DNA of 64,000 bases from Acidimicrobiia bacterium (lineage in GTDB: Bacteria > Actinomycetota > Acidimicrobiia > Spongiisociales > UBA5794). The notes below the pieces were generated by a model that worked only from the letters and a program-made list of their open reading frames with translations, did no database searches and was not told where the DNA came from. Numbering within the stretch: position 1 is the stretch's first letter; the number at the start of each line of letters is the position of its first letter. Of this stretch, positions 49,964 to 64,000 are shown one piece after another. The stretch lies in assembly GCA_036985855.1 (NCBI GenBank), contig BTQL01000004.1:6372-70371 (forward strand), written 5' to 3'. The position numbers and the translations under genes are program-made.

Positions 49964-50000
49964 ACCGGACTCAGTGCGGTCCAGAACCCTGGGTTTGCGG
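49946..50000 (+). repeat. Structured interspersed repeat, copy 4
   Basis: GCAGTTCTCTGGGCCCTAGACCGGACTCAGTGCGGTCCAGAACCCTGGGTT. It sits between convergent genes (lipoprotein stop and nrdJ stop). Confidence 0.8.
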
Positions 50001-50004
50001 GTTC

Positions 50005-53000
50005 TTAGCTGCAGCCTTTGGAGTCGCCGCAGTTGAGGCAGCGGTAGCAGGAGCCGTTGCGGATCGTGATGTGACCACAGGTGTCACACAGGGGGGCATC
50101 ACCCATCTTGTCTGCGAGCAGCGCCTGGACCGCTGCTGTTTGGACCTCCTGCGCTGAGTGGGCTGCTTGCGGTGCGACGGCCGCTGGCACCGACGCAACG
50201 GATGTTTGCGGAGCAGGCGTCGATACGCTGTCGGCGAACTTCGCTGCCCTCATCTGTGCCTCGATGTCGCGTTCCATCGCAGCTTCCGTCAGGTCGAGTT
50301 GGAGCCCGGCATCCACAGCGGCTCCCTTCGGAGGCTCGGGCAGATCACCTGTGCGATCTGGTGGAACCTGGGCGAGCTCGTCCCTGTGGAGGTACTCGAC
50401 CCCCAGCGCTCTGAACACGTAGTCGATGATCGAGTTCGCCATCTTGATGTTCGGGTGCCCTTCGACCATGCCCCGTGGCTCGAACGTCTGGAACGTGAAC
50501 GTGTCGACGTACTCCTCGAGCGGAACACCGTATTGGAGCCCCTTGCTCACCGCAATGGCGAAACATCCGAGAATCCCCCGCAGCGTTGCGCCCTCTTTTG
50601 CGAGATCCAGGAAGACCTCGCCAAGCGTGCCGTCCTCATATTCGCCCGTGCGAAGGAAGACCTTGTGACCGCCGATACGTGCTTCCTGAGTGAATCCAAC
50701 CCGTCGTGACGGCAGAAGGAACCGGGGTCTCGGCATCGCTTCGTACGCCTCGGTAGGGGACATACCTGGTCGGTACATCCCGCCAAAGATGTCTACCTCG
50801 CGCTCGATCGCTGCGGTGATCTCATCGGGTTCTTCGTCGGACGTGCCTTCGTCGGACGTCGATGACAACGGCTGGGATGCTTTCGAGCCGTCCCTGTAGA
50901 GCGCCATCGCCTTGAGTCCGAGCTCCCAGGACATCTGGTAGGACTCCTCGATGTCCGCGACCGTTGCCTCGTTCGGCATGTTTATGGTCTTTGAGATCGC
51001 ACCCGAAATGAATGGCTGTGCGGCAGCCATCATCTTGATGTGCCCGATGTGATGGATGTAGCGTTCGCCGTACTTACCGTTCTTGTTGGCCGTATCGAAC
51101 ACCGGGAGGTGCTTGTCCCTCAGCCCGGGAGCACCCTCGATTGTCTGACGCCCGCAGATGACGTTGTTCGCCTCATCGATCTCAGCATCGCTGAAGCCGA
51201 GGGCGGAAAGCATGTTGAACCCGAGACCGTTGTACTCCTCTGCGGTGAAACCGAGACGCTGCATCGTCTCTTCGCCCAATGTCCACTGATTGAATGCGAA
51301 ACCGATCTCGAACACGCCGGGAAGCGTTGCTTCGATCTTGTGAAGGTTCTCATCCGTGAACCCTTTTGCGCGGAGTGTCTCAGCGTTGACGCTTGGTGCC
51401 CCCTCGAGGCTCATCGTGCCCAAGACGTAATCGATGATGGTGCTGATCGCCGTTTCGTCGTACCCGAGGCGCGCAAGTGCCGGAGCAACAGACTGGTTGG
51501 CGATCTTGAAGTAGCCGCCCCCAGCGAGTTTCTTGAACTTCACGAGTGCGAAGTCAGGCTCGACACCTGTGGTATCACAATCCATCAGGAGCCCAATGGT
51601 GCCCGTAGGCGCTAAGCATGTGGACTGTGCGTTGCGGTAGCCGTGCTCTTCGCCGCGCGCTACTGCCGTGTCCCATGCGTCGTGGGCGAAGGCCAACATA
51701 TCCGCGGGGCACACGTCTTGGTCGATACCGACGACGGTGTGGCCAATGGCGTCGTACTCAGACTGGTCGGCGTCGTAGGCAGCCTTCTGGTGGTTTCTCA
51801 TCACACGGAGCATCGAGTCGGAGTTCTCGTGATACAGAGGGAACGGCCCAACGACGGAGGCCATCTCCGCAGAAGCTGCATAGGAGTAACCCGTGAGGAT
51901 CGAAGTCAATGCACCGGCGATAGCGCGACCCTCGTCGGAATCATATGCGATGCCCATCCGCATGAGGATGGAGCCGAGGTTTGCGTACCCGAGGCCGAGC
52001 GTGCGGTAGTCGTAGGAACCCTGGGCAATGGCTTCAGACGGGAAGTGTGCCATCGTCACCGAGATCTCGAGAACGATCGTCCAGAGGCGGATTGCGTACT
52101 TGTAGCTCTCGAGATCGAAATCACCGGTTGCGTCGTCGTAGAACGTGCCGAGGTTCACGGAGGCAAGGTTGCACGCCGTGTTGTCCAAGAAGAGGTATTC
52201 CGAACATGGGTTGGACGCCCTGATCTGACCGCCGGCGGGGGAGGTGTGCCACTCGTTGATGGTGGTGTGGAACTGGACACCTGGATCAGCCGACGCCCAA
52301 GCGGCTTGCGCGATCTGATGCCACAGATCACGTGCCTTGACGGTTTTCATCGGTGCGCCGTCAGTCCGACGCGTGAGATCCCAGTCTTCATCTGCCATTG
52401 CGGCATCGATGAACTCGTTTGTCATGCGGACCGTGTTGTTCGAGTTCTGACCCGAGACCGTGGCATATGCCTCGCCGTTGAAGTCCGAGGAGTAGCCACA
52501 GGCGATAAGGGCTTTGACCTTCTCTTCTTCGACAGCTTTCCAGTTGATGAACGTCTCGATGTCTGGGTGATCGACGTCGAGGATGACCATCTTCGCCGCC
52601 CGACGGGTGGTGCCGCCCGACTTTATTGCTCCTGCCGCGCGGTCGCCGACCTTGAGGAATGACATCAGACCAGACGACTTGCCTCCACCGGAGAGCGGTT
52701 CGCCCTCGGCCCTGAGATTCGAGAAGTTGGTTCCAGTACCTGATCCGAACTTGAAAAGGCGGGCCTCCCTGACCCAGAGATCCATGATGCCGCCAGCGTT
52801 CACCAGGTCGTCATCAACGGACTGGATGAAACACGCGTGGGGTGATGGCCTGCTGTACGAGTCGGGAGATGCGGTGAGCTCCTCGGTCTCGGGATCTACG
52901 AACCAGAACCCTTGCTCTGGTCCTTCTATGCCGTATCGATGATGCAGCCCCGTGTTGAACCACTGGGGGGAGTTCGGTGCCGCCATCTGGTGCAGAAGCA

Positions 53001-53391
53001 TGTAGGCGATCTCGTCCTCGAACACCTGCGCATCATGGGTGGAAGCAAAGTATCCGTTCTCCTCACCCCACCAACGCCACGTGGAGGCAAGGCGGTCGAT
53101 GACCTGGCGGGCCGAGTTCTCGGGTCCGAGTACCGGATCTCCGCTGTCGTCGACGATCGCGGTGCCCTTCTCATCGAACTGGGGTACACCTGCTTTGCGA
53201 AAGTACTTGGACACCATGATGTCCGCCGCCACCTGGGACCAGTCTGCGGGTATCTCAGCATCGGTCATTTCGAAGACGACCGACCCGTCCGGATTCGTGA
53301 TCCTCGAGTCCCGCCTCGACCATTGGACGGTGTCATACGGGTTTACACCCACGGTGGTGAACCGCCGTTCGATGCTGAGTCCTGCTGCCAT
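50005..53391 (-). CDS. nrdJ: Adenosylcobalamin-dependent (class II) ribonucleotide reductase
   Basis: Class II RNR core with a C-terminal Zn-ribbon (CDTCGHITIRNGSCYRCLNCG). The track ORF extends to 53463; MAAGLSIE at 53391 is the likely start. No intein signature seen. Confidence 0.9.
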   Translation of the reverse strand: MAAGLSIERRFTTVGVNPYDTVQWSRRDSRITNPDGSVVFEMTDAEIPADWSQVAADIMVSKYFRKAGVPQFDEKGTAIVDDSGDPVLGPENSARQVIDRLASTWRWWGEENGYFASTHDAQVFEDEIAYMLLHQMAAPNSPQWFNTGLHHRYGIEGPEQGFWFVDPETEELTASPDSYSRPSPHACFIQSVDDDLVNAGGIMDLWVREARLFKFGSGTGTNFSNLRAEGEPLSGGGKSSGLMSFLKVGDRAAGAIKSGGTTRRAAKMVILDVDHPDIETFINWKAVEEEKVKALIACGYSSDFNGEAYATVSGQNSNNTVRMTNEFIDAAMADEDWDLTRRTDGAPMKTVKARDLWHQIAQAAWASADPGVQFHTTINEWHTSPAGGQIRASNPCSEYLFLDNTACNLASVNLGTFYDDATGDFDLESYKYAIRLWTIVLEISVTMAHFPSEAIAQGSYDYRTLGLGYANLGSILMRMGIAYDSDEGRAIAGALTSILTGYSYAASAEMASVVGPFPLYHENSDSMLRVMRNHQKAAYDADQSEYDAIGHTVVGIDQDVCPADMLAFAHDAWDTAVARGEEHGYRNAQSTCLAPTGTIGLLMDCDTTGVEPDFALVKFKKLAGGGYFKIANQSVAPALARLGYDETAISTIIDYVLGTMSLEGAPSVNAETLRAKGFTDENLHKIEATLPGVFEIGFAFNQWTLGEETMQRLGFTAEEYNGLGFNMLSALGFSDAEIDEANNVICGRQTIEGAPGLRDKHLPVFDTANKNGKYGERYIHHIGHIKMMAAAQPFISGAISKTINMPNEATVADIEESYQMSWELGLKAMALYRDGSKASQPLSSTSDEGTSDEEPDEITAAIEREVDIFGGMYRPGMSPTEAYEAMPRPRFLLPSRRVGFTQEARIGGHKVFLRTGEYEDGTLGEVFLDLAKEGATLRGILGCFAIAVSKGLQYGVPLEEYVDTFTFQTFEPRGMVEGHPNIKMANSIIDYVFRALGVEYLHRDELAQVPPDRTGDLPEPPKGAAVDAGLQLDLTEAAMERDIEAQMRAAKFADSVSTPAPQTSVASVPAAVAPQAAHSAQEVQTAAVQALLADKMGDAPLCDTCGHITIRNGSCYRCLNCGDSKGCS

Positions 53392-53449
53392 AGGTTTCCT
53401 TCTCTCGGTCTCGTGCCACGCATCCGGGCGGTATATCCACAGACTTGTC

Positions 53450-53510
53450 CACATGCGCAACATGTTGTGTCCTATATGGCTCCATACCCACTACATGTTG
53501 CGTGGTTGCA
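53450..53510 (-). promoter_or_regulatory. Candidate tandem NrdR boxes upstream of nrdJ
   Basis: A perfect palindrome ACAACATGTTGT at about 53457..53470 and an imperfect second copy CTACATGTTGCG about 33 bp away, in a 280-bp AT-richer leader. Both resemble the remembered NrdR-box consensus (acaCwAtATaTwGtgt). Confidence 0.4.
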
Positions 53511-53674
53511 CGAGTGTAATTACATTTGTGTCACTCGTCAAACACCATCCGAGTCGTCTCGTACTTGTCCGATCCGGGGGAAGATATGTCATTTGTAGCG
53601 GCCCGGTGTGACACATTGCCAACCGAGCAGCAACCCACTTTTCGCGAAGGTGGACACTTTTCGCGCCCTCGCCC

Positions 53675-55111
53675 TCAACCGACGACCGATCCGTCGTCTA
53701 TGTTCGCTCTCTCGCGAAGCGTTGCCCGTACAGCCTCGATGTCTGCCGGACACGTCTTGGACGCCTTCCAGTAGCACCAACCCGTTGGCAGGAAGAACAC
53801 CTGAAACAGAGAGAGGCCGAGGGCAAGATTGAACGGCGGCGGGAGGGTCTTTCGAATCGTGTCGGCCGTGACGGTTGTCAATCCCGTTCCGACCGCACGG
53901 CCGATGCCGTTGATGAAATTTCCGACGCCGAATACGGTGCCGCGGTGTTCAGGGACGTTCACATCCGAGATCAAGGCAAACCAGTTCGGTGAGTCGGCTG
54001 AGGTGAGGGCGAGGGCGATGATCGCCGACAAGAACGCGAGCGCGACCCAAGGGTTCGTGACGATTGCGGCGAGAACCTCAGGGACGAACGTTGCTGTGCT
54101 TGCCCCGTCTGTCACCTCCAGGCCGCGCAACGGTACCCAGAAGAAGACGAGGAAGAACGGAATGGCCCCGAGGATGCCGATGGCAGAAACGTATGCCCTT
54201 CCGGATAGATTCCGCCGCTGCCATCGGTCGCCGATGTGGCCGAAGAGAATCGAGAACAGAGCGCCGACCGTGAACAGAGCGGCGAACAGACCGCCTACTT
54301 GTTGACCGGTGGCTTGTGAGTATCCCTCGGCGATGACTTTCTCCTGGTAGAGCAACGGCACCCACACGAGCGATCCGTAGGCGACCTGTGCGGTCAGCCC
54401 CTGGAGAACGAGCCAGGTGTTCGTTTTGACCGCTCGAAGGTCTTCGATCTGTCCGGCGTCGATCGAGTATTCATACGTCTCGCCCCTGGCGTACATCTCC
54501 TGAAGGTCGGGTTCCTTGTACCCGCGGGGTGCGTCGAAGGTCGTCAGGAATAGGAGCGAGAACAGGAAACCTGCAGCGGCGAGGATGACGAACGGAGCTG
54601 TATGGTTTTGAGCTCCGGCTTGAGACGCGAGCAGGCTTCCGACAAGCGAACCGATCCCCTGGCTGAGCCCCCAGAATGACATCGCGAGTCCGCGTCTCCT
54701 CGGTGCGATGAAGTCGGAGATGACAGAGAACCCGACCGACGCGATCGATCCGAGGCCGATACCAGCGATGATCTGGAGGCCCAACAGTGACCAGTACGAA
54801 GTTGTGAACCCGGACAGGCCAACGGCAGCCGACCAGATGACCGTGCCCCACAGGAGCAGTTTCTTGCGGTCCCTCGAGTCAGCGAGATATCCCCATACGA
54901 CTGCCGTCACCGCGGTCACCAATATCTGTGCCCCTGTGAGGACTCCGATCGCTGTTGTGCTCACATCGAAGGTTTCGCGTAGTCGGGGAACCATCGAGGG
55001 GATGAGGGCGATCGCCGCGTTGTCGAGTGAAGCAAGGATGACGAACACGACGATCGTATAGACGACGTGGGTTGTGCCGCCCCACCAAGCGCGGCTCACG
55101 GTGGTTGTCAT
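53675..55111 (-). CDS. MFS transporter
   Basis: 478 aa with 12-14 TM helices and an MFS motif A-like 'GYLADSRDRKKLLLWG'. Confidence 0.85.
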   Translation of the reverse strand: MTTTVSRAWWGGTTHVVYTIVVFVILASLDNAAIALIPSMVPRLRETFDVSTTAIGVLTGAQILVTAVTAVVWGYLADSRDRKKLLLWGTVIWSAAVGLSGFTTSYWSLLGLQIIAGIGLGSIASVGFSVISDFIAPRRRGLAMSFWGLSQGIGSLVGSLLASQAGAQNHTAPFVILAAAGFLFSLLFLTTFDAPRGYKEPDLQEMYARGETYEYSIDAGQIEDLRAVKTNTWLVLQGLTAQVAYGSLVWVPLLYQEKVIAEGYSQATGQQVGGLFAALFTVGALFSILFGHIGDRWQRRNLSGRAYVSAIGILGAIPFFLVFFWVPLRGLEVTDGASTATFVPEVLAAIVTNPWVALAFLSAIIALALTSADSPNWFALISDVNVPEHRGTVFGVGNFINGIGRAVGTGLTTVTADTIRKTLPPPFNLALGLSLFQVFFLPTGWCYWKASKTCPADIEAVRATLRERANIDDGSVVG

Positions 55112-55138
55112 GTTCGTATCGTGGCAGCGATCCGAACG

Positions 55139-55414
55139 CTAATCGGCGGGCATTTCCTCGATTCCGGCCGGCGGGTTGCCGTCGACGATCGTGTCATCTG
55201 TCACCGGTGGCTGCGGTGGTGCGGACTGCTTGGGACCTTTGCCGAAGGGTGCCCATGCCGCAAGGATGAGCCCAAGGAGGAGTCCAAGCAGGGGCAGAAT
55301 CCAGATCAGGTCAGAATGGAGTGGGATGACGCCGTAGAGAACCAACGTCAACCCACCGAACAGGCCGAACAAGAAACCTGCCACGATGCCAAGAATCGGT
55401 CGACCCTTCATCAT
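55139..55414 (-). CDS. Small membrane protein, unknown
   Basis: 91 aa with two TM helices. Coupled by an ATGA overlap to the upstream secreted protein. Confidence 0.4.
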   Translation of the reverse strand: MMKGRPILGIVAGFLFGLFGGLTLVLYGVIPLHSDLIWILPLLGLLLGLILAAWAPFGKGPKQSAPPQPPVTDDTIVDGNPPAGIEEMPAD

Positions 55415-55959
55415 GTCACCTTCCTCTTCACACCGGCCCCCAGTGTTGCCACACCAAATACCAGCGCGCCGATCGCGCTGATGATTGCGGCGGCCCCGGG
55501 ACTACCTGCGAGTTTCATCGTCACCGCGACAACACATGTCTGCCCGAGTTGCGTGTGCGAAGCTGTGACTTCAAGCTGTACGCCGCGCGGAACGAAACCG
55601 GGGACTTCGTAGGTATAGGCTCCTGAATCGGAGACCTCGACGGTGTCCCCGTCCCAGTCCGCAACTGCCCAATTGAAGCGTGGGAGTCGAACCGACACAG
55701 CCCCGAAGAACGGTACTTCGTTGGGGGGTGCAGGAAGGTTGATGTTGCCCGCCCACTGGACCGTGTCCTTCTCCGGCACGACTACGACTTTGCTCAGTGG
55801 TGTGCTTTCTGTCACCGTCGTGTTGTCCGTGAACGCGGCACTTCCCGTGCACTTGCCCTGGAACACCTCGGCGTTCGCCGGTGCGGCGAGGCCAACCACC
55901 CAGAATGCAGTGATGGTTCCGAGCAGCACAAGACTCGCCGCTTTTCGTCTGTCTCCCAT
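55411..55959 (-). CDS. Secreted/membrane-anchored hypothetical protein
   Basis: Signal peptide (..AAPANA), a domain of about 120 aa, and a C-terminal TM helix. Confidence 0.4.
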   Translation of the reverse strand: MGDRRKAASLVLLGTITAFWVVGLAAPANAEVFQGKCTGSAAFTDNTTVTESTPLSKVVVVPEKDTVQWAGNINLPAPPNEVPFFGAVSVRLPRFNWAVADWDGDTVEVSDSGAYTYEVPGFVPRGVQLEVTASHTQLGQTCVVAVTMKLAGSPGAAAIISAIGALVFGVATLGAGVKRKVT

Positions 55960-56004
55960 GTTTCTGCCTCCCTCTTCGTATCACGATAGACGGTCCTCGG
56001 TCGC

Positions 56005-57846
56005 GTGTCCGGTGATTATCCTCCGCGTATGAGACACCGACCCTCACGGCAGGCGCCGACGTGGGTGCCAGATGTCGACACGATCGACAGCGCAAACCTC
56101 ACAGCCGCCATGATGTCGCGGGGTATCGGTACGTACGATGAGTTCCATCGCTGGTCCGTCGCGGATCCGGACGGTTTTTGGGCGATGGTTGTTGAAGACC
56201 TCGAGATCCGATTCGACGAGGAACCGGCGGCTATCCGCGGAAGTGATGATGCCACAGACCCTGATTGGCTTCCTGGGGCTTCATTGAACATCGTGCGATC
56301 ATGCCTGGACCACGACCCCGGTGCTGCCGCCATCGTGGCCGGTTCCCAGGACGCACTCCGGACGGTCTCGGTAGGCGAACTGACAGAGCGCGTAGCCGCG
56401 TTTGCTGGAGGATTCGATCGGGCCGGGTACACCGAGGGCGATGCAGTGGCAATCGTGATGCCCATGACCGTCGAGGCGGTCGTCGCCTATCTCGGAATCA
56501 TCTCGGCGGGTGGTGTGGTCGTATCGATAGCCGACTCCTTCGTCTCGGACGAGGTCGAAACTCGACTCTCGATTACGTCACCGGTCGCGGTTGTTACCCA
56601 GGATCGAGCCATCCGGCTCGGTCGGGTGCTGCCGATGTACGCCAAATGTGTCGAGGCCGGGGCCCCGCCATGCATTGTCGTCGAAACCGGATCAGGGATG
56701 CCGCTGCGAGACGGGGACATCTGGTGGGACGATTTTGTTGTTCCCGGCTCTGTTTTCGATCCGGTCGCACTGGCTGCATCTGCCCACACGAACATCCTCT
56801 TTTCATCGGGCACGACCGGTGACCCGAAAGCGGTCCCGTGGTCACAGACAACACCCATCAAGGCGGCAATGGATGGTCGGTTTCATCAGGACATTCACAG
56901 TGGTGATGTCGTGGCCTGGCCCACGAATCTTGGATGGATGATGGGGCCGTGGCTCATCTATGCAGCACTCCTCAATGGAGCGACGATCGCGTTGTACGAC
57001 GACGCACCAACGAGCGAAGGTTTCATACGATTCATCCGGAATGCGGGCGTTACAATGCTTGGCATCGTTCCATCGATCGTTGCGGCATGGCGCGGATCCG
57101 GTGTCCTGGCAGAGGGCGACTGGACTGCGGTTCGTGTGGTGTCATCAACCGGTGAGGCATCGAACCCAGATGACTACGACTGGCTCATGCGGGTGGCTGG
57201 TGATGTGCCGCTGATCGAGTATTGCGGTGGCACCGAGATCGGTGGTGGGTATGTGACGGGTACGGTGCTCCAGCCTGCGGTTGCCTCGCGTTTCACCACT
57301 CCTGCTCTCGGACTTGACATGGTCCTGTTCGATGACGAAGGAGAGCCCGCCGACGAGGGAGAGGTATTCCTCGTACCGCCATCGATGGGGCTTTCGACAG
57401 AGCTGTTGACCGGCGATCACCGGATCGTCTACTACGAAGGCCTCCCGGCATACAACCGACCACTACGTCGTCACGGCGACCAGATGGTGAGAGAGGACGG
57501 TGGCCTTTATCGAGCTCTGGGGAGGGTCGACGACGCGATGAACCTTGGAGGCATCAAGGTCTCGTCCGCAGATCTCGAAGAAGCTATCGGTGACCTCGAC
57601 GGTGTGGCCGAAGTTGCTGCGGTGGCTGTCCCTCCGAAAGGCGGGGGTCCCGATCGACTCGTCGTGTTCGCCGTGCCGGATGATGCGCCCGACGTGCACG
57701 CACTGCGCGCAGAGATGCAACAGAGGATCAGTGCCACTCTGAACCCGCTGTTCAAGGTACATGAGGTCGTGTTGATCGATGAGCTCCCCCGCACCGCATC
57801 CCACAAGGTGATGCGTCGTTCACTGAGGGCCGACTACCAGGATTGA
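56005..57846 (+). CDS. Acetyl-CoA-synthetase-family adenylate-forming acyl-CoA ligase (ACS/acetoacetyl-CoA-synthetase-like)
   Basis: ACS-type N-terminal domain (YDEFHRWSVADPDGFW), an AMP-binding core (FSSGTTGDPKAV), and a C-terminal Lys in 'PRTASHKVMRR'. Confidence 0.8.
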   Translation: MSGDYPPRMRHRPSRQAPTWVPDVDTIDSANLTAAMMSRGIGTYDEFHRWSVADPDGFWAMVVEDLEIRFDEEPAAIRGSDDATDPDWLPGASLNIVRSCLDHDPGAAAIVAGSQDALRTVSVGELTERVAAFAGGFDRAGYTEGDAVAIVMPMTVEAVVAYLGIISAGGVVVSIADSFVSDEVETRLSITSPVAVVTQDRAIRLGRVLPMYAKCVEAGAPPCIVVETGSGMPLRDGDIWWDDFVVPGSVFDPVALAASAHTNILFSSGTTGDPKAVPWSQTTPIKAAMDGRFHQDIHSGDVVAWPTNLGWMMGPWLIYAALLNGATIALYDDAPTSEGFIRFIRNAGVTMLGIVPSIVAAWRGSGVLAEGDWTAVRVVSSTGEASNPDDYDWLMRVAGDVPLIEYCGGTEIGGGYVTGTVLQPAVASRFTTPALGLDMVLFDDEGEPADEGEVFLVPPSMGLSTELLTGDHRIVYYEGLPAYNRPLRRHGDQMVREDGGLYRALGRVDDAMNLGGIKVSSADLEEAIGDLDGVAEVAAVAVPPKGGGPDRLVVFAVPDDAPDVHALRAEMQQRISATLNPLFKVHEVVLIDELPRTASHKVMRRSLRADYQD

Positions 57847-57916
57847 CGGTCATGCGGCTGTCTGCGCATCACGCAATCACACGTATCATCCATGCCAGAG
57901 AACGAGGAGGTTCCCG

Positions 57917-58804
57917 ATGGGGGTCGATGCGCCATACGAAGCGCTGAAGGAACGCGTCAGAGGGCTTGACGGCGTTGTGATGGTCATCGGTGATGCCGAG
58001 ACAGGAAAAACGACTCTCGCTCGCATGTTGCTGCGCGATGCGGTCGAGCACGGCCGTACGGTGGTCTATGTCGACGGTGATGTGGCTGCGGCAACGGTGG
58101 GACCGATCGGATGTGTCGGGTTGAAGGTGGTGTCATCTCTCGATGACTGCGAGACGCTCCTCGTTCCCGACGAGCTCCGATTCGTTGGGGCGGTCGAACC
58201 GGATGGAGTCGTCCTGCCACACGTGGTTGCCGTCACTGCGTTGATCGACATCGCCAAGGAGATGGCTGATCTCGTCATCTGTGATACAACCGGCGTGGTC
58301 ACTGGCGTGGTTGGCCAGACGCTGAAGTATCACCTTGTCGAGTTGGCTCAGCCGGCGCTTGTCATAGCGATCAGACGTGGCGCAGAGCTCGATCCGGTCA
58401 TCGGCATGCTGAGACGCTTCCTGTCCACGAGAGTCGCAGAAGTCGACCCTCCGGAGGATATTGTCTCGGGTTCCCCGATCGATCGGCAGGACACCAGAGC
58501 CGAAGCTCTGCACCGAAACCTCGGCGATGATCCACCGCGATGGAGGGTACAAACGACGGTGTTCGCCCCGACACTGCCGGACGGATTCGATGTCAGCCGA
58601 CTGGATGGCATGCTCGTTGGCGTCCAGGACGAACGCGGCCGATGCCTTGGTCTCGGAGTGCTCGAACACGTTGATGGAACCGTGAAGGTGGCAACAAGAT
58701 TCGGCGACGAGATGCGGGGCCTCAGACTCGGGTCGATCAGGGTCGATCTGGAAACGTTCGCAACGAGCCGAGTGAGACTGCGCGAGCTGATATTCGGCGT
58801 CTGA
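57917..58804 (+). CDS. Clp1/Grc3-family P-loop protein (polynucleotide 5'-hydroxyl-kinase-like; SIMIBI-class NTPase)
   Basis: P-loop segment 'VVMVIGDAETGKTTLARMLLRDAVEHGRTVVYVDGDVAAATVGPIG' closely parallels the remembered Clp1 segment '[45 protein letters not shown]'. The Walker-B-like 'LVICDTTGVV' corresponds to the Clp1 'INTxGW' motif. Confidence 0.5.
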   Translation: MGVDAPYEALKERVRGLDGVVMVIGDAETGKTTLARMLLRDAVEHGRTVVYVDGDVAAATVGPIGCVGLKVVSSLDDCETLLVPDELRFVGAVEPDGVVLPHVVAVTALIDIAKEMADLVICDTTGVVTGVVGQTLKYHLVELAQPALVIAIRRGAELDPVIGMLRRFLSTRVAEVDPPEDIVSGSPIDRQDTRAEALHRNLGDDPPRWRVQTTVFAPTLPDGFDVSRLDGMLVGVQDERGRCLGLGVLEHVDGTVKVATRFGDEMRGLRLGSIRVDLETFATSRVRLRELIFGV

Positions 58805-58852
58805 GCTCGCTCCGCTCCGCGGCCTCCTTCAGGTGCACATCGATCCCACGCG

Positions 58853-59116
58853 ATGATGGTCGGGGGCACACCGTGGACAACGAAGGAATGCGATGATTCT
58901 GGAGCTGCGACCGGCAACGGTGAACGATACGTCGCGGCAGTTGTGGCGCATGCCCGTGAGACCTTCGAGCACCGCCGACTTCGCGTGACCATCGCCTGGG
59001 GTAACGAGCGGGCGTTTCGCGTGTGGTCCGGCGTGGGGTTCGTCGAGGTCGTCCGCTTCGTCTCATCGCGCACAGTTATGGGAACGAACGAGTTCGTCGT
59101 GCTCGAGTTCGCGTGA
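58853..59116 (+). pseudogene. Probable GNAT acetyltransferase remnant (internally deleted and frameshifted)
   Basis: A GNAT-like N-terminus, MILELRPATVNDT.., sits in one frame (from about 58893). A GNAT-like C-terminus, RLRVTIAWGNERAFRVWSGVGFVEV, sits in another frame (58853..59116). The central acetyl-CoA-binding motif A is missing. Confidence 0.3.
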
Positions 59117-59179
59117 GCTGCGCGGCGCTTATTGCCGATGACAGGGTGCGGCCCTTGAGATCGAGGTCCCGACGAGGTC

Positions 59180-60373
59180 CTACACACTCTCCAGAAGGAC
59201 AGCCGTTCCGAGTCCAGAGCCCGCGGGCACCGTCGCCCCTCCGAAGTCAAGGTCACGCTGCTTCAGCGCTTTGGCGAGGTGCACCGAGATTCTCAGGCCC
59301 GACATGCCGACGGGATGCCCCAGTGCAACAGATCCTCCGTCGACGTTCAGCCTTTCCCGATCCCAGCCACCCTTCTCCTCGCACGCGAGGAGCTGCACAG
59401 CAAAACCCTCGTTGCATTCGATGAGGTCGAGATCGTCCAGGGTTCTGTCCGCTCCGGAGAGCGCTGCGTTGAGGGCGTCGACACAGGAGTAACCCATGAG
59501 ATTCGGGTCGCACCCGACCATGGCCGTTCCCTCTGTGACGATGCGGGCGAGAGGCTCGAGATTGTGCTTGTTCATCGCGTCGGCGCTCGCGATGATCGCC
59601 GCTGCTGCGCCGTCGTTGATCGTGGCGGCATTTCCCGCAGTGATGACACCACCAGGCTGAACGCTCCGAAGTTCGCCAAGGATCTCAACGGTCGACCCGG
59701 CGCGTGGGTTCTCGTCGACGTCGAAGATCATCGATCCGCGCCTCAAAGGCACCTTGATCGGCACGATCTCATCGGTGAAGCGGCCGTCGGCGATGGCGGC
59801 GAGCGCTCGTTCGTGGGACACGATGGCGTATTCATCCATCTGACGTCTGGAGATGCCGTCGACCTCGGCGTGATGTTCGGCGACATCGATCATGTAGTTG
59901 GCGTCGCCCCACATCCCGGACCCCGCCAGGGTGCACTCGCGTAACGTGTCGAGAAACGCACCGCTTCCGAGCCGGTGCCCCCATCGAGAACCCGGCACCA
60001 TGTGCGGGGCGTTACTCATCGATTCGAGTCCGAGAACCATCACCATGTCGGCCGCACCGATAGCGATCTGATAGGTCGCCTGGATCAGGGCGGCCATCGA
60101 TGAACAGCACTGCATGTTGATCGTGAAGGCTGGCACGCCCTCGGGTACCCCGACGCGCATACCGACGATACGCGCCGGGTTCGATTCGGTCATGTCCTGA
60201 AGAACCATCCCCGCGATGATGAGATCGAGCGCCCCCGCATCGACGTTCACTCGATCGAGCAGCGAGGCGGCCACGTCGGACCCGAACTCGGTCGCCCGCA
60301 GAGGTTTCAGCGAACCTCCGAACTTGCCTATGGGACTCCTCAGACCTTCGATGAGGAACACATCTCTGCCCAC
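59180..60373 (-). CDS. Thiolase (acetyl-CoA C-acetyltransferase)
   Basis: Active-site Cys region (NMQCCSSMAAL), thiolase signatures including 'CNEGFAVQ', and the C-terminal GGATVPAGSG motif. GTG start. Confidence 0.9.
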   Translation of the reverse strand: MGRDVFLIEGLRSPIGKFGGSLKPLRATEFGSDVAASLLDRVNVDAGALDLIIAGMVLQDMTESNPARIVGMRVGVPEGVPAFTINMQCCSSMAALIQATYQIAIGAADMVMVLGLESMSNAPHMVPGSRWGHRLGSGAFLDTLRECTLAGSGMWGDANYMIDVAEHHAEVDGISRRQMDEYAIVSHERALAAIADGRFTDEIVPIKVPLRRGSMIFDVDENPRAGSTVEILGELRSVQPGGVITAGNAATINDGAAAAIIASADAMNKHNLEPLARIVTEGTAMVGCDPNLMGYSCVDALNAALSGADRTLDDLDLIECNEGFAVQLLACEEKGGWDRERLNVDGGSVALGHPVGMSGLRISVHLAKALKQRDLDFGGATVPAGSGLGTAVLLESV

Positions 60374-60409
60374 GGTGCTCTCCCTTGTTGCTTATGCTGT
60401 CGGCGATAT

Positions 60410-60432
60410 TTATAATAACGGACGTTCGTTAG
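60410..60432 (+). promoter_or_regulatory. Imperfect inverted repeat TAACGGAC|GTTCGTTA in the divergent thiolase/mutase promoter region (candidate TetR-family operator)
   Basis: A 16-bp inverted repeat (7 of 8 arm matches) inside an AT-rich 97-bp divergent intergenic region. A TetR regulator is encoded at the downstream end of the cluster. Confidence 0.3.
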
Positions 60433-60470
60433 ATGTACAATCGCGACGGAGACGGAAAGGAGACTCGACC

Positions 60471-62189
60471 GTGTCCGATGACGCAAGCGAGGCTCGATTG
60501 AGAGAGCTCTCAGCGCAATGGCAGGCCGAGTACGAGAAACTCGTTGTGAAGTTTGGCGATGCCGCTCCCAAGCGGGCGACGAATCCGACGACACACTCAG
60601 GTCTCCCTCTCAAGTCGGCCTATTTCCCCCATGACGTCGCAGAGCTCGACCTGGTCGAGGCCCCCGGTGCGTACCCGTTCACACGAGGGAATCTGGCTGC
60701 GCAATACCAGCTGATGCACTGGGCCAACCAGCCGGTCATCGGTTACGGGCTGCCGGAGGACACGAGGGATCGCATGGATTCCCTCGCCGAACAGGGCATG
60801 GTCGGCTACTTCGGCCAGCGGTTCTACAACCTCGTCTACGACCTGGTTTCCCACGAGGGCCTCGACCCGGACCATCCCGCAGCGAGGGGCCGCGTCGGTC
60901 AGGCCGGAATGGGCGTGTACTCGAAGGCCGATATGGCCCGACTGTTCACAGGGATGGATCTGACGAAGATGAACGTCGTCCACATCTCGTATTACCAGGT
61001 GGTACCGGCCCTCGCGCAGTACATCGCCCTTGCCGAGGATCAGGGGCTGACACCCGATCAGCTGCGCGGGAACTCGATGAACTGGTACCACCAGTCCGCT
61101 TATGTCGGCATGAGCGCCTTTCCACCACGCCAGGGCCACCGGCTGGCAGTCGACCTGATCCAATACTGCACCAGGGAAATGCCCAGGTGGAACACCACCA
61201 ACTTCTTCGGATACGGTGCGGAGGAGGCCGGAGGGACCGCGGTCGAAGAGATTGCGTTCATGCTCGCCTACGGCATCGATCTGGTGCGAGCATGCATCGC
61301 GTCTGGGCTCACGGCCGACGAGGTGCTGCCACGCTTCGGTTTCCAGGTCGCCCAGGCGAATGACTTCTTCGAGGAGATCTGCAAGATTCGCGCGCTACGA
61401 CAGATCTGGGCGACAACCATGAAGGAACGATTCGGAGCGGAGAATCTCCGGTCGATGCATGTACGTATCCACACGCACACGTCTGGCGTATCCCTGACGG
61501 CCCAACAGCCTCTCGTGAACCTGATCAGGACGACGCTGCACGCTTTCGGGGCAGCGTTGTCCGGTGTGCAAGCGATGGAGGTGTCCGCCTACGACGAGGC
61601 CTACGCCCTCCCGACGGAGGAGGCGGCAACCCTCGCCCTGCGCGTCCAGCAGGTGATCCAGGAGGAGACCAACATCACGTCGGTTTCCGATCCTCTCGCC
61701 GGGTCCTACTACGTTGAATCGTTGACCAGCCAGCTCGCAGAAGCTGCGCTCGAACTCGTAGAGCAGATCGAGGCACAGGGAGGTTACATAGCCGCTCAGG
61801 AATCTGGTTGGCTTCGGCGACGGATTGAGACGTCCGCAGAACGCTGGCGAGATCTCATCGATTCTGGTGAGCGTTCCGTTGTGGGACTGAACAAGTACCA
61901 GACCGACGGGCCGCCCCCAACGGATCTCTTTGTGGTTGAGTCCGAGGTCGAGCAGATCGCAGTCAAACGCATCAAGGAACTCCGGGCCAACAGGGACAAC
62001 GACCGGTGGGAGAGGGCTATGTGCGAGTACGCAGAGGCCGCGGAGGAGCTGGCCACGAAGGACTATGCCGACATCGACGGCAGTCTCATGGAAGCGGCTA
62101 TCGACGCTGCGCGAGCAGACGCCACGACAGGAGAGATGATGGGTGTCCTCAAGAGCGCCCTGGGATGGACGGCACCACATGAGTATTGA
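60471..62189 (+). CDS. Acyl-CoA mutase catalytic (large) subunit, MCM family, without fused B12 domain (IcmA/HcmA-like)
   Basis: About 572 aa from a GTG start preceded by GGAAAGGAG. The MCM-family substrate-binding TIM barrel carries PFTRG..., a Tyr in '..VIGYGLPEDT..' aligned to the MCM Tyr89 region, and 'HEGLDPDHPAARGRVGQAGMGV' aligned to the MCM '[22 protein letters not shown]'. The track ORF starts at 60216 inside the thiolase gene. Confidence 0.85.
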   Translation: MSDDASEARLRELSAQWQAEYEKLVVKFGDAAPKRATNPTTHSGLPLKSAYFPHDVAELDLVEAPGAYPFTRGNLAAQYQLMHWANQPVIGYGLPEDTRDRMDSLAEQGMVGYFGQRFYNLVYDLVSHEGLDPDHPAARGRVGQAGMGVYSKADMARLFTGMDLTKMNVVHISYYQVVPALAQYIALAEDQGLTPDQLRGNSMNWYHQSAYVGMSAFPPRQGHRLAVDLIQYCTREMPRWNTTNFFGYGAEEAGGTAVEEIAFMLAYGIDLVRACIASGLTADEVLPRFGFQVAQANDFFEEICKIRALRQIWATTMKERFGAENLRSMHVRIHTHTSGVSLTAQQPLVNLIRTTLHAFGAALSGVQAMEVSAYDEAYALPTEEAATLALRVQQVIQEETNITSVSDPLAGSYYVESLTSQLAEAALELVEQIEAQGGYIAAQESGWLRRRIETSAERWRDLIDSGERSVVGLNKYQTDGPPPTDLFVVESEVEQIAVKRIKELRANRDNDRWERAMCEYAEAAEELATKDYADIDGSLMEAAIDAARADATTGEMMGVLKSALGWTAPHEY

Positions 62190-62598
62190 GATCGCACCGG
62201 GCGAGCCCATCCGGGTTCTGCTAGCCAAACCAACACATGACTGCCACGATCGCGGCGTTCGCCTTGTTGCAAAGAAGATGCGAGATGCAGGCTTCGAGGT
62301 CATCTTCATCAACTTCCTCCTACCCGAGGAGGTGGTGCAGGCTGCCGTCGACGAGGACGTCCATGTGGTCGGCGTCTCGACATCCGCAGGAGGCCACCTT
62401 CCCATCTTCGAAGACGTCATCGCCGGACTTGCTTCCCAGGGTCGAGGCGACGCGGTCGTGATCGCTGGTGGTGTGATTCCGCCAGGGGATGAGACGACAC
62501 TGCGGGGTTGGGGTGTCGAGGCGATCTTCGGCCCCGGCACCAACGCGGCCCAGGCGATCGAGATGATCAGGGCGCGGCTCACTCCGGTTTCGCCATGA
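62179..62598 (+). CDS. Acyl-CoA mutase small subunit (cobalamin-binding domain, IcmB/HcmB-like)
   Basis: B12-binding DxHxxG motif (KPTHDCHDRGV) and a Rossmann-like fold. ATG at about 62179 overlaps the large-subunit stop. Confidence 0.85.
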   Translation: MSIEIAPGEPIRVLLAKPTHDCHDRGVRLVAKKMRDAGFEVIFINFLLPEEVVQAAVDEDVHVVGVSTSAGGHLPIFEDVIAGLASQGRGDAVVIAGGVIPPGDETTLRGWGVEAIFGPGTNAAQAIEMIRARLTPVSP

Positions 62599-63506
62599 GG
62601 TCGCCAAGAAAAGTCGCCATCATCGGTGGCGGAGGTGTTATGGGTCACGGCATCGCGCTTGCCTGCCTGCAACACTCCGATGCAGATGTCTCGATCATCT
62701 CCCGCCGAGAAGAATCCGTTGAGCGTGGGCTCGACCTCATTCTCGAAGGTCGGTTTGGGCTTGCCCGAGGCGTTGAAAAGGGTCGCCTCACCGCGGAGCA
62801 GGCCGCGGACGCGAGGTCGCGTCTGTCGGGCACCGTCAACTACGAGGAAGGGCTGTCCGGTGCCGATCTCGTCTTCGAGACCGTGCCGGAGGTCCTCGAC
62901 ATCAAACACGAGGTCCTGCGTGAGGCCGAGCGCTGCGCATCGGACGACGCGGTGCTCGCCACGAACACCTCATCGATCCTGATCGCAGAACTGGCTGCTC
63001 CCCTTGACGACCCGAGCCGGCTCGTTGGCACCCATTGGTTCTATCCCGCGAACATCCTCCCGCTCGTTGAGGTGGCTCGCAGTGCGTTCGTCGATGAGAA
63101 CGCCCTCACCGGTGTTGTCGCATACCTAGGCACGATCGGAAAGCGGCCCGTGGTGGTGAAGGACTCCCCGGGGTTCTTCATGACGCGTTTCATCAACAAC
63201 TTCCTGGCCGAGGCCATCCGGCTGGTGGAACTCGGGATCGCGGGTCCTGCGGAGATCGATGAGATGGTCAAGACGGGGCTCGGCTGGCCCATGGGTGTGT
63301 TTGAACTTCTCGACGCTTCGAGTTTCGAAGCCTTCTACCACGCCCAGGAATACCTCCACGAGACGTGCGGCGAACGGTATGCCGTACCGCCGCTCGCACG
63401 TCAAGCGTTCTCCGCCGGATACCTCGGTTCCAAAGACCTCAAGCCTGGAAGCCGGGGCGGTTGGTACGACTTCCTCGGTGTCGAGAAGACAGAGGGCACA
63501 GCTTGA
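62595..63506 (+). CDS. 3-Hydroxyacyl-CoA dehydrogenase (NAD-binding)
   Basis: N-terminal GxGxxG (VAIIGGGGVMGHGIA) and the 3HCDH C-terminal domain. ATGA overlap with the mutase small subunit. Confidence 0.85.
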   Translation: MRSPRKVAIIGGGGVMGHGIALACLQHSDADVSIISRREESVERGLDLILEGRFGLARGVEKGRLTAEQAADARSRLSGTVNYEEGLSGADLVFETVPEVLDIKHEVLREAERCASDDAVLATNTSSILIAELAAPLDDPSRLVGTHWFYPANILPLVEVARSAFVDENALTGVVAYLGTIGKRPVVVKDSPGFFMTRFINNFLAEAIRLVELGIAGPAEIDEMVKTGLGWPMGVFELLDASSFEAFYHAQEYLHETCGERYAVPPLARQAFSAGYLGSKDLKPGSRGGWYDFLGVEKTEGTA

Positions 63507-64000
63507 CCAAGCCAACTGCGGCCAACCGAAGGGAACAGCTACTCGAAGCGGCTGCTGCCTGCTTTTCCCGGGAGGGATACGATGCAGCATCGATGCGTGC
63601 GATTGCCGACGAGGCGGGGATGCGCACCGCGTCGATCTACTACCACTTCAACGGCAAGGACGACCTGCTCGTGGCAGTCCACGAGGAGGCGCTCAACCGG
63701 ATTCGAGAGGCCACCCGTGGGGCGCTCCGCGACATCGATGATCCATGGGAACGGCTCGAAGCAGCCTCCGCTGCCCACCTGGAGATCCTCCTCACTGGTG
63801 GGACCTTCTTCAAAGCCGTCATGCAGCACGTGCCGCACAAGGTCGAAGGGCGCGAGCTGATCTTCAAACTTCGAGATGACTACGAGAACATCTTCACCGA
63901 CCTCGTTGCGGCCCTGGAGCTCCCGCCGGACACCGAGCGGGAAACGTTTCGTTTGATGCTGCTGGGAGCGATGAACTGGACCTTCACATGGTGGCGTCCC
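63503..64000 (+). CDS. TetR/AcrR-family transcriptional regulator (3' end outside the window)
   Basis: TetR HTH 'REQLLEAAAACFSREGYDAASMRAIADEAGMRTASIYYHFNGKDDLL'. A TTG start overlaps the dehydrogenase stop. The ORF runs off the window end. Confidence 0.7.
   Translation, partial: MTKPTAANRREQLLEAAAACFSREGYDAASMRAIADEAGMRTASIYYHFNGKDDLLVAVHEEALNRIREATRGALRDIDDPWERLEAASAAHLEILLTGGTFFKAVMQHVPHKVEGRELIFKLRDDYENIFTDLVAALELPPDTERETFRLMLLGAMNWTFTWWRP

Follow-up and report, generated by a model that had tools for sequence, protein, structure and literature searches.

Near the right end of the window, as we call the 64,000-nucleotide stretch of Acidimicrobiia contig BTQL01000004.1 analysed here, lies most of a gene cassette built around a split, adenosylcobalamin (AdoCbl)-dependent acyl-CoA mutase. 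Judging from its sequence, this mutase belongs to a distinct, widespread and apparently uncharacterised clade. The cassette very probably feeds the mutase product to a 3-hydroxyacyl-CoA dehydrogenase (HADH) and a thiolase encoded beside it. A reaction like that of 2-hydroxyisobutyryl-CoA mutase (HCM) is a tentative candidate for the activity of the mutase. The cassette combined with such a mechanism is the best overall explanation that we can offer, and we regard the case for it as evenly balanced.

Identification of a split acyl-CoA mutase

The two subunits carry the features of the AdoCbl acyl-CoA mutase superfamily, namely a barrel domain that scores above curated cutoffs and a B12 domain with the DxHxxG motif. 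The large subunit matched PF01642 with 511.5 bits over profile positions 1–512 and TIGR00641 with 466.5 (cutoff 303.8), and the small subunit matched TIGR00640 with 131.5 (cutoff 57.45). The DCHDRG sequence of the small subunit corresponds to the DxHxxG (His-on, base-off) motif and aligns with DGHDRG in the B12 domain of methylmalonyl-CoA mutase (MCM); the best matches of this subunit in the PDB were the B12 domains of MCM and HCM. When compared with solved structures, the large subunit scored 321 bits with human MCM, 320 with HCM (4R3U) and 313 with P. shermanii MCM. In Foldseek, MCM, HCM and IcmF were matched with E values of 1e-31 to 1e-20, at 32–34% identity for MCM and HCM and 24–25% for IcmF. 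The mutase fold is supported by the predicted structure, an AlphaFold2 model of the large subunit with a mean pLDDT of 70.6 and low values at residues 62–86 and 338–411.

The initial annotation of this DNA had described a split AdoCbl acyl-CoA mutase, with a separate B12 subunit, that was not an ordinary MCM, and the domain scans, residue comparisons and equivalog scores bear this out. Its assignment to the IcmAB/HcmAB type does not hold: the protein is 32–34% identical to both MCM and HCM, with equal scores, it lacks HCM Ile90 and Asp117 as well as the canonical Gln197 and His244, and its regulator is TetR, not GntR. The subunit sizes of 570 + 140 amino acids, offered as evidence of type, were given correctly, but the split is non-diagnostic.

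Members of the family share 56–94% identity, and the next proteins drop to 38–41% among public proteins and GTDB genomes. The family spans more than eight phyla, with members in Acidimicrobiia, many marine Alphaproteobacteria, Burkholderiales, Gammaproteobacteria (Steroidobacteraceae), Acidobacteriota (Pyrinomonadaceae), Myxococcota (Polyangia), Methylomirabilia and Bacillota. A small number of cultured actinomycetes carry it as well, namely Streptomyces colonosanans MUSC 93, Streptomyces sp. NPDC001292, Nocardioides sp. Root140, Nocardia australiensis and Microtetraspora sp. NBRC 16547. It is frequent in marine and soil metagenomes, and the mutases of Acidimicrobiia and Alphaproteobacteria are ≈70% identical. 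An exhaustive search of 50%-identity representatives gave the clade's own cluster representative at the top (52%), the next full-length protein at 44% and the remainder at about 40% or less, in a ranking that leaves aside fragments of clade members. Plasmid-borne homologues found by tblastn in PLSDB were all ≤41% identical among the matches listed; neither pELW1-1 nor the Methylibium PM1 megaplasmid, both expected in PLSDB, was seen among the 40 matches listed. There was no Kyrpidia or Bacillus protein among the 240 family matches listed, including those of a search with a Bacillota member as the query. In the databases, family members bear generic names such as "acyl-CoA mutase large subunit family protein".

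Rebuilt active site

The window family was aligned with HcmA, human MCM and outgroup mutases, and the HcmA numbering was verified by counting along the 4R3U sequence, which gave Ile90, Asp117, Gln208, Tyr244 and His245 as expected. The predicted substrate-lining residues differ from those of every characterised mutase (Table 1). At MCM positions Tyr89, Arg207, Gln197 and His244, the window mutase has Val, a deletion, Met and Gly, respectively, and this pattern is near-invariant across the family. In MCM, Gln197 and His244 bind the migrating thioester carbonyl. The strand that contacts CoA in MCM also differs, reading NLAAQYQLMHW in the family, as against PYPTMYxxRPW. Near-invariant motifs specific to the clade are WANQPVIGYGLPEDT, FYNLVYDLVSHEG, GNSMNWYHQSAYVGMSAFPP, FGYGxEEAG, PRFGFQ, RIHTHTSG and QAMEVSAYDEA.

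Table 1. Active-site motifs of the window family aligned with those of MCM and HCM.
Window family	MCM/HCM	Change
WANQPVIGYG	WT(I/M)RQ(Y/I)AGF	Tyr89/Ile90 to Val; Arg87 to Gln
FYNLVYDL, with a six-residue insertion ahead	S(V/T)(A/D)FD(L/M)	HCM Asp117 to Val
GNSMNWYHQSAYVGMSAFPP	GT(I/V)Q(N/A)DILKE(F/Y)M(V/A)(R/Q)...	Gln197 to Met; Arg207/Gln208 deleted
FGYG(A/V/I/M)EEAG	SGYH(M/I)xEAG	Tyr243 kept; His244 to Gly
PRFGFQ	PRLSFF	Phe287 to Gln
RIHTHTSG	RxHCQTxG	Gln330 to His
QAMEVSAYDEA	QSLHTNxxDEA	Glu370 kept

The initial annotation had judged the specificity residues divergent, and the Val and the deletion at the equivalents of MCM Tyr89 and Arg207, neither of them MCM-like, agree with that. It had also pointed to the Tyr of VIGYG; this residue aligns with the Phe of YAGF in MCM, and the equivalent of Tyr89 is Val89.

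Among the 120 nearest full-length 50%-identity representatives (P0203–P0352), 44 lack both Gln197 and His244, and 46 keep Arg207. The loss of canonical residues thus extends beyond the clade, and the mutase superfamily must contain a great deal of uncharacterised diversity, of which the clade is one sizeable, clearly delimited part. The proteins nearest to the clade, P0203 (52%) and P0205 (44%), also have the GNxMNWY, GYG and HxHT motifs.

A cassette conserved across phyla

The plus-strand genes of the cassette overlap one another, by 11 nt between the large and small subunits, by ATGA between the small subunit and HADH, and by TTGA between HADH and TetR, where the TTG start of TetR overlaps the HADH stop codon. 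The split mutase is thus predicted to be translationally coupled to the HADH and TetR genes; the overlapping junction of small subunit and HADH had already been noted in the initial annotation. Upstream, the GTG start of the large subunit at 60471 follows 8 nt after the ribosome-binding site GGAAAGGAG.

Gene context was counted over ≈65 family loci, many of them on truncated contigs. The small subunit was present in 57 of these, the thiolase in 50 (as orthologues of 64–90% identity adjoining the mutase), HADH in 48, TetR in 44, MeaB in 35 and an enoyl-CoA hydratase (ECH) in ≈22. Mutase, HADH, thiolase and TetR, which the initial annotation had grouped together, are tightly linked, and the cassette is conserved as a unit across phyla. 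Acidimicrobiia and Alphaproteobacteria share the gene order of the window. In Burkholderiales, the order is TetR (minus strand), [MeaB], HADH, thiolase, large subunit, small subunit and ECH. In Streptomyces, Nocardia and Nocardioides it is carboxyltransferase, thiolase, TetR, (AMP ligase), ECH, large subunit, small subunit, HADH, metallo-β-lactamase (MBL)-fold hydrolase, MeaB, biotin carboxylase and AMP ligase. An acyl-CoA dehydrogenase was not in the core cassette at most of the loci. A diagnostic upstream gene (monooxygenase, thiamine-pyrophosphate lyase or specific transporter) was sought in the same ≈65 loci, where the neighbours vary and were uninformative.

The window ends inside the TetR gene, and the absence of meaB reported in the initial annotation is correct within the window but an artefact of its edge. 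On contig L080, the large subunit is 94% identical to that of the window, and the contig is collinear with window positions 50736–64000 at ≈90% nucleotide identity. There, the 190-aa TetR (TetR_N, TetR_C_24) is followed directly by a 316-aa MeaB, which scored 313.7 with TIGR00750 (cutoff 240.75), and then by a 262-aa ECH. In the window genome, MeaB would start ≈70 bp past base 64000. A MeaB/MMAA-type chaperone is thus found through L080 and at the 35 family loci, with its gene lying outside the window. The P-loop protein of CLP1_P type encoded farther upstream was considered as a MeaB substitute and rejected, since it travels with a ligase gene and the true MeaB follows TetR. As a whole, the cassette is predicted to be compact, mobile and self-regulated, with seven genes in ≈6.7 kb, the first five of which occupy window positions 59180–64000.

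A sister subfamily (L085/L086, 5959–10896; P0203, 52%) has an operon of NMO (FabK-like), MeaB, large subunit, small subunit and ECH, on a contig that also encodes an aldehyde:ferredoxin oxidoreductase. From the make-up of this operon, the core of MeaB, mutase and ECH would be older than the association with HADH and thiolase.

Other mutase-related genes were seen beside some family loci. In L023 (13967–19203), from a metagenome-assembled genome (MAG) of Sneathiellales, a second, unrelated mutase set lies convergent to the family cassette; its two MM_CoA_mutase-like genes stand in tandem (553 and 578 aa, with products ≈30% identical to that of the window) and are accompanied by a B12 subunit and a separate TetR, while a single MeaB gene seems to serve both clusters. 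In L035 (144–1904; Nocardioides sp. Root140), a gene that fuses a BluB-like nitroreductase with a CobT-like DBI_PRT, and is connected with the B12 lower ligand, stands upstream of the mutase cluster at a distance of a few kb; the flanks also hold an acyl-CoA dehydrogenase and a PaaK-like ligase. In L045 (14330–15769; a Methylomirabilia MAG), a gene for an HpaB-family protein of 479 aa, the size of a 4-hydroxybutyryl-CoA dehydratase, and then one for an acyl-CoA dehydrogenase stand directly downstream of mutase, HADH and thiolase; the HpaB-family gene is a possible hint of a 4-hydroxybutyryl-CoA link in this lineage.

Proposed function and alternatives

In the proposed pathway, the mutase would catalyse a radical 1,2-shift of the thioester carbonyl in a short branched acyl-CoA resistant to β-oxidation, giving a 3-hydroxyacyl-CoA, while MeaB would load and protect AdoCbl on the small subunit. 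Our best guess for the reaction is the conversion of 2-hydroxyisobutyryl-CoA, or of a 2-hydroxy-2-methylacyl-CoA homologue, into 3-hydroxybutyryl- or 3-hydroxyvaleryl-CoA. The coupled dehydrogenase would turn the 3-hydroxyacyl-CoA into a 3-oxoacyl-CoA, and the thiolase would split this into acetyl-CoA plus acetyl- or propionyl-CoA. The hydratase may connect or stereo-correct the enoyl and 3-hydroxy intermediates.

Since the core lacks an acyl-CoA dehydrogenase, entry at the 3-hydroxyacyl level is indicated. The composition of the cassette suggests that the mutase yields a 3-hydroxyacyl-CoA, or else a compound separated from one by a single hydratase step, and on chemical grounds the simplest source of such a product would be a 2-hydroxy-2-methylacyl-CoA. 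The thiolase scored 371 with TIGR01930 (cutoff 240), and its best PDB matches were clostridial and PhaA-type acetoacetyl-CoA thiolases; those of HADH were the 3-hydroxybutyryl-CoA dehydrogenases PaaH1 and Hbd. The closeness of both to C4 enzymes was counted in favour of an HCM-like reaction. The same logic of thiolase, mutase, MeaB and HADH is documented for the catabolism of 2-hydroxyisobutyric acid (2-HIBA) in Mycolicibacterium ELW1 (PMC13188929), and 2-HIBA catabolism follows it in Aquincola and Kyrpidia as well as ELW1 (PMC7176365, PMC13188929). At the position of HCM Asp117, Val is common to the window family and to the first shell of the Bacillus massiliosenegalensis RCM (V122). A Val at HCM position 117 reportedly goes with activity on (R)-3-hydroxybutyryl-CoA or pivalyl-CoA.

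Several observations weigh against an HCM-like reaction. HCM Asp117 and Ile90, together with Gln197 and His244, are all lost in the window mutase, and the analogy with HCM and RCM is weak for that reason. The positions that we take to be the CoA contacts of MCM (Tyr75, Thr77, Met78, Arg82, Thr85 and Arg87) differ in the window family, and the AlphaFold2 model is weakest around the substrate site. There is a mismatch in stereochemistry, as Val117, reportedly tied to (R)-3-hydroxybutyryl-CoA in RCM, is paired here with a partner from the (S)-specific HADH family. An acid-CoA ligase is not encoded at most family loci, and the MBL-fold hydrolase, biotin carboxylase and carboxyltransferase of the actinomycete versions are unexplained by a simple C4 route. 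Finally, the PDB, the named database matches and the literature searched yielded no characterised member of the clade.

A bolder proposal, which we take seriously without favouring it, is that the clade carries out an acyl-CoA rearrangement outside the set of methylmalonyl-, isobutyryl-, ethylmalonyl-, 2-hydroxyisobutyryl- and pivalyl-CoA, and does so without the carbonyl-activating pair Gln197/His244. The cassette would then be an unrecognised, horizontally spread route from a branched or oxygenated short-chain acid to acetyl-CoA in marine and soil bacteria.

Because the pocket is unlike that of HCM or RCM, the HADH is of (S) type, a ligase is missing at most loci and the actinomycete loci have extra genes, two further alternatives were kept, neither of which we consider likely. 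One is an alkyl mutase of the isobutyryl-CoA mutase (ICM) or pivalyl-CoA mutase (PCM) type, interconverting isobutyryl- and butyryl-CoA or pivalyl- and isovaleryl-CoA, with an acyl-CoA dehydrogenase encoded elsewhere and then hydratase, dehydrogenase and thiolase. Such a mutase would suit several hydrophobic first-shell positions (Val89, Val117, Met197 and Gly244), and the D117V variant of HcmA reportedly gains pivalyl-CoA activity, but polar residues have appeared in the pocket as well (Asn, Tyr, His and Gln of NWYHQ, and His of HTHT), the ICM signature of Phe80 and Gln198 is missing, and the score with the IcmF equivalog NF045497 was 166.5, against a cutoff of 1500. The hydratase is better explained by an alkyl mutase than by an HCM-like one. 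Acyl-CoA dehydrogenase genes adjoin the mutase in L045, L056 and L035, but the core cassette is without one at most loci. Likewise, the carboxyltransferase and biotin carboxylase of Nocardioides and Nocardia recall a leucine/isovalerate route, in which HADH, the most tightly coupled partner, has no role.

The other alternative, also improbable, keeps the MCM-type skeleton and replaces the carboxylate of the substrate with a neutral substituent. The mutase would act on a 4-hydroxy- or 4-oxoacyl-CoA (4-hydroxyvaleryl- or levulinyl-CoA, for example), and its product, a 3-hydroxy-2-methyl- or 2-methyl-3-oxoacyl-CoA, would be taken on to acetyl-CoA and propionyl-CoA, as part of a γ-lactone or levulinate route. 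By our own reasoning the reaction is chemically allowed, but its linear-to-branched direction is thermodynamically unfavourable, and no levulinyl-CoA or 4-hydroxyvaleryl-CoA mutase was found in the literature searched. It would account for the loss of both MCM carboxylate binders, Tyr89 being replaced and Arg207 deleted. Hydratase, dehydrogenase and thiolase would fit a lower pathway of isoleucine type, but the thiolase and HADH are nearest to C4 enzymes, and the thiolase shows no particular resemblance to 2-methylacetoacetyl-CoA thiolases. In the actinomycete operons, the added MBL-fold hydrolase could be a lactonase and comes with an AMP ligase, and the PccB-like carboxyltransferase and biotin carboxylase could take up propionyl-CoA; the MBL-fold and carboxylase genes are, however, limited to a few actinomycetes.

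That the mutase is a true HcmAB/RcmAB orthologue in an ordinary 2-HIBA pathway, as in the initial annotation, is very unlikely. The subunit architecture is identical, MeaB is present, ibc cluster 2 of Mycolicibacterium ELW1 likewise places HADH and thiolase beside the mutase, and the Val at HCM position 117 is common with RCM. At 32–33%, the identity to HcmA (4r3u) is nevertheless no better than that to human MCM; HcmA Ile90, Asp117, Gln197, Gln208 and His245 are not conserved; and both the hcl gene and the GntR regulator typical of hcm/rcm clusters are missing. The limit of 41% among the PLSDB matches listed and the lack of Kyrpidia or Bacillus proteins among the 240 family matches listed also speak against orthology.

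The residue and equivalog comparisons rule out an ordinary split MCM, since none of Tyr89, Gln197, Arg207 and His244 is retained, each being replaced or deleted, and the score with NF006944 was 409.6 against a cutoff of 876; the Pfam and TIGR "methylmalonyl-CoA mutase" models do match, with database annotations in agreement, and MeaB adjoins the mutase in relatives, but no epimerase was found in any examined cluster, the partners are HADH and thiolase, and carboxyltransferase and biotin carboxylase occur in a few actinomycete loci only.

Divergent promoter and putative operator

The thiolase and mutase genes are transcribed away from a common control region, where comparison of orthologous upstream regions brought out the imperfect palindrome TAACGGACGTTCGTTA. 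In Acidimicrobiia and several Alphaproteobacteria loci, a palindrome of the TAACGnACGnTCGTTA type precedes the mutase start by 30–60 bp. In the 64-kb window, TAACGGACGTTCGTTA is a single site, with 0 expected from shuffles. It is abutted by a TATAAT box at 60409–60414 (plus strand) and falls inside the 16-nt spacer between TGTACA and TATTAT in a promoter-like site of the thiolase (minus strand). The palindrome is the obvious candidate for the operator of the cassette TetR (TetR_C_24 type), which would bind there. TetR would repress both divergent promoters through TAACGGACGTTCGTTA, probably being released by an acyl-CoA. No exact inverted repeats with a seed of 6 were found in the mutase/thiolase intergenic region, and no cobalamin riboswitch or other Rfam RNA in 50000–64000.

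Organization of the locus and insertion of the cassette

The gene map of the right end of the window was drawn from the open reading frame (ORF) listing, translations and domain scans (Table 2). The gene inventory, subunit sizes and quoted peptides of the initial annotation were right: the mutase pair, HADH, thiolase, ligase and TetR were all found, as were the strings NLVYDLVSHEG and QPVIGYGLPEDT in the translations. It had not mentioned the CLP1_P gene and the GNAT remnant, which sit between the ligase and the thiolase.

Table 2. Features at the right end of the window.
Feature	Position	Strand	Remarks
Major facilitator superfamily (MFS) transporter	53675–55111	-	Followed by two small ORFs
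AMP-forming ligase, like acetyl-CoA synthetase (ACS) or acetoacetyl-CoA synthetase; 605 aa from ATG 56029	56005/56029–57846	+	ACAS_N, AMP-binding, AMP-binding_C; outside cassette
CLP1_P-type P-loop protein, 295 aa	57917–58804	+	PF16575, 84 bits; outside cassette
GNAT acetyltransferase gene, truncated remnant	58907–59113	+	Left cassette junction
Thiolase, short-chain acetoacetyl-CoA type	59180–60373	-	Thiolase_N, Thiolase_C; first cassette gene, divergent from mutase
Divergent control region, thiolase/mutase, 97 bp	60374–60470		
Imperfect palindrome TAACGGACGTTCGTTA, putative TetR operator	60416–60431		From comparison of orthologous upstream regions
Mutase large catalytic subunit, 572 aa	60471–62189	+	PF01642, TIGR00641; GTG start
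Mutase small B12-binding subunit, 139 aa	62179–62598	+	PF02310; DCHDRG
NAD-dependent HADH, 303 aa	62595–63506	+	3HCDH_N, 3HCDH; 3HCDH family, (S)-specific type
TetR-family repressor, full length ≈190 aa	63503–64000	+	TTG start; cut by window end

The ACS-like ligase had been taken in the initial annotation to complete a route from a C4 acid to two acetyl-CoA, and we considered it as the activating enzyme of the pathway. This role is ruled out by synteny. When the window proteins were compared by tblastn with 79 related loci, ligase and CLP1_P adjoined the mutase in none of these; both adjoin it in L080, which was added later. In L083 and L084, from two other Acidimicrobiia genomes, ligase orthologues of 63–90% identity lie in the same backbone, with no mutase genes there. 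The order in these two is class II ribonucleotide reductase (RNR), MFS, two small proteins, ligase, (GATase), CLP1_P, hypothetical, GT4, Acetyltransf_6, Asparaginase_II, RsiG, M23 and ThiS; L080, L083 and L084 all keep the CLP1_P gene downstream of the ligase. This run of RNR, MFS, ligase and CLP1_P without the cassette contradicts a part for the ligase in the mutase pathway, and the enzyme is best regarded as a neighbour. The ligase also scored below the equivalog cutoffs for acetoacetate-CoA ligase (269, cutoff 639) and acetate-CoA ligase (230, cutoff 725).

The block from thiolase to hydratase in L080, ≈6.7 kb long, lies exactly between the CLP1_P/GNAT and hypothetical-GT4 parts of the backbone. 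Since that backbone is intact without mutase genes in L083 and L084, the cassette was inserted into an older Acidimicrobiia neighbourhood. In the window, only residues 91–159 of the 159-aa L080 GNAT were matched by tblastn, at 83% identity, so that the remnant corresponds to the C-terminal 69 aa; relative to L080, the window has a deletion of ≈250 bp at this place.

The neighbourhood includes a conserved Acidimicrobiia module (window 53675–58804; L080, L083 and L084). On the minus strand it has the MFS transporter and two small non-Pfam proteins of ≈90–110 and ≈182–187 aa, and on the plus strand the ACS-like ligase and the CLP1_P-type P-loop protein, in some cases with a class-I glutamine amidotransferase between them. 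The module ligase did not reach the cutoff of any named CoA-ligase equivalog. The window also encodes three cobalamin-dependent enzymes inside 21 kb, namely a MetH-type methionine synthase (41674–45129, minus strand), the class II RNR (50005–53463, minus strand) and the mutase (60471–62598, plus strand), and the source organism appears to be heavily B12-dependent.

Comparison with known systems

To our knowledge, few acyl-CoA mutase specificities are known. Each of these gave access to a pathway (for propionate, valine/butyrate, ethylmalonyl-CoA, methyl tert-butyl ether/2-HIBA or pivalate) and also supplied a tool for synthetic carbon-skeleton chemistry. The cultured carriers make the present cassette directly testable. 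Knowing the substrate would put a name to a widespread catabolic trait that depends on B12 and show the mutase scaffold working without its textbook catalytic residues; if the enzyme proved to be a 2-hydroxyisobutyryl-CoA mutase, it would represent a third independent lineage for that reaction.

MCM (human MMUT, 2XIJ; P. shermanii MutB, 1REQ) is the best PDB match of the window mutase in sequence and fold (321 bits, TM ≈0.7). The two have in common the barrel and B12 domains, the "DEA" motif with Glu370, Tyr243 and a MeaB/MMAA chaperone. In contrast to MCM, the window mutase has lost the Tyr89/Arg207 carboxylate binders and the Gln197/His244 carbonyl binders, falls below the MCM equivalog cutoff and has no epimerase in its context, with a carboxylase in a few actinomycete loci only. 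IcmAB has in common with the window mutase the split into 570 + 140 aa and hydrophobic replacements at the Tyr89/Arg207 positions. At these positions, we take the ICM signature to be Phe for Tyr89 and Gln for Arg207 (Phe80 and Gln198); the window mutase has Val at the first and a deletion or Met at the second. Compared with IcmF, it is 24–25% identical, lacks a fused G-domain and has HADH and thiolase as partners.

HcmAB of Aquincola tertiaricarbonis (4R3U) and RcmAB of Kyrpidia tusciae and B. massiliosenegalensis resemble the window system in their split subunit sizes, His-on AdoCbl domain and MeaB-type chaperone, and in passing their product to a 3-hydroxyacyl-CoA dehydrogenase and then a thiolase. 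The window mutase is 32–33% identical to HcmA; the HCM pair Ile90 and Asp117 reads Val and Val, and Gln197, Gln208 and His245 are not conserved. It further differs from HCM in the six-residue insertion before the FD(L/M) motif and in the remodelled β1 strand, which binds CoA in MCM. With RCM it shares the Val at the HCM Asp117 position, and the window cassette pairs this RCM-like Val with an (S)-type HADH. The supplement of PMC11599936 gives the first shell of the B. massiliosenegalensis RcmA as I95, V122, V172, H174, Y252 and F296. The comparison with RcmA covered the four positions of this list that could be mapped, 95, 122, 252 and 296, where the window mutase has Val, Val, Tyr and Gln. The hcm/rcm operons carry hcl (2-HIBA-CoA ligase), meaH and a GntR-family regulator (PMC7176365), whereas the window cassette has TetR, HADH and thiolase, and a ligase of hcl type is missing at most loci.

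The closest parallel in gene content is ibc cluster 2 of Mycolicibacterium sp. ELW1, which, like the window cassette, has a thiolase, small and large mutase subunits, a MeaB-like protein and a 3-hydroxybutyryl-CoA dehydrogenase. It differs from the window cassette in its HCL-type 2-HIBA-CoA ligase, GntR/FadR regulator and cobalamin synthesis genes, and its mutase is presumably among the plasmid homologues ≤41% identical to the window protein. The window mutase thus appears to be a widespread variant of acyl-CoA mutase that matches no known HCM or ICM type.

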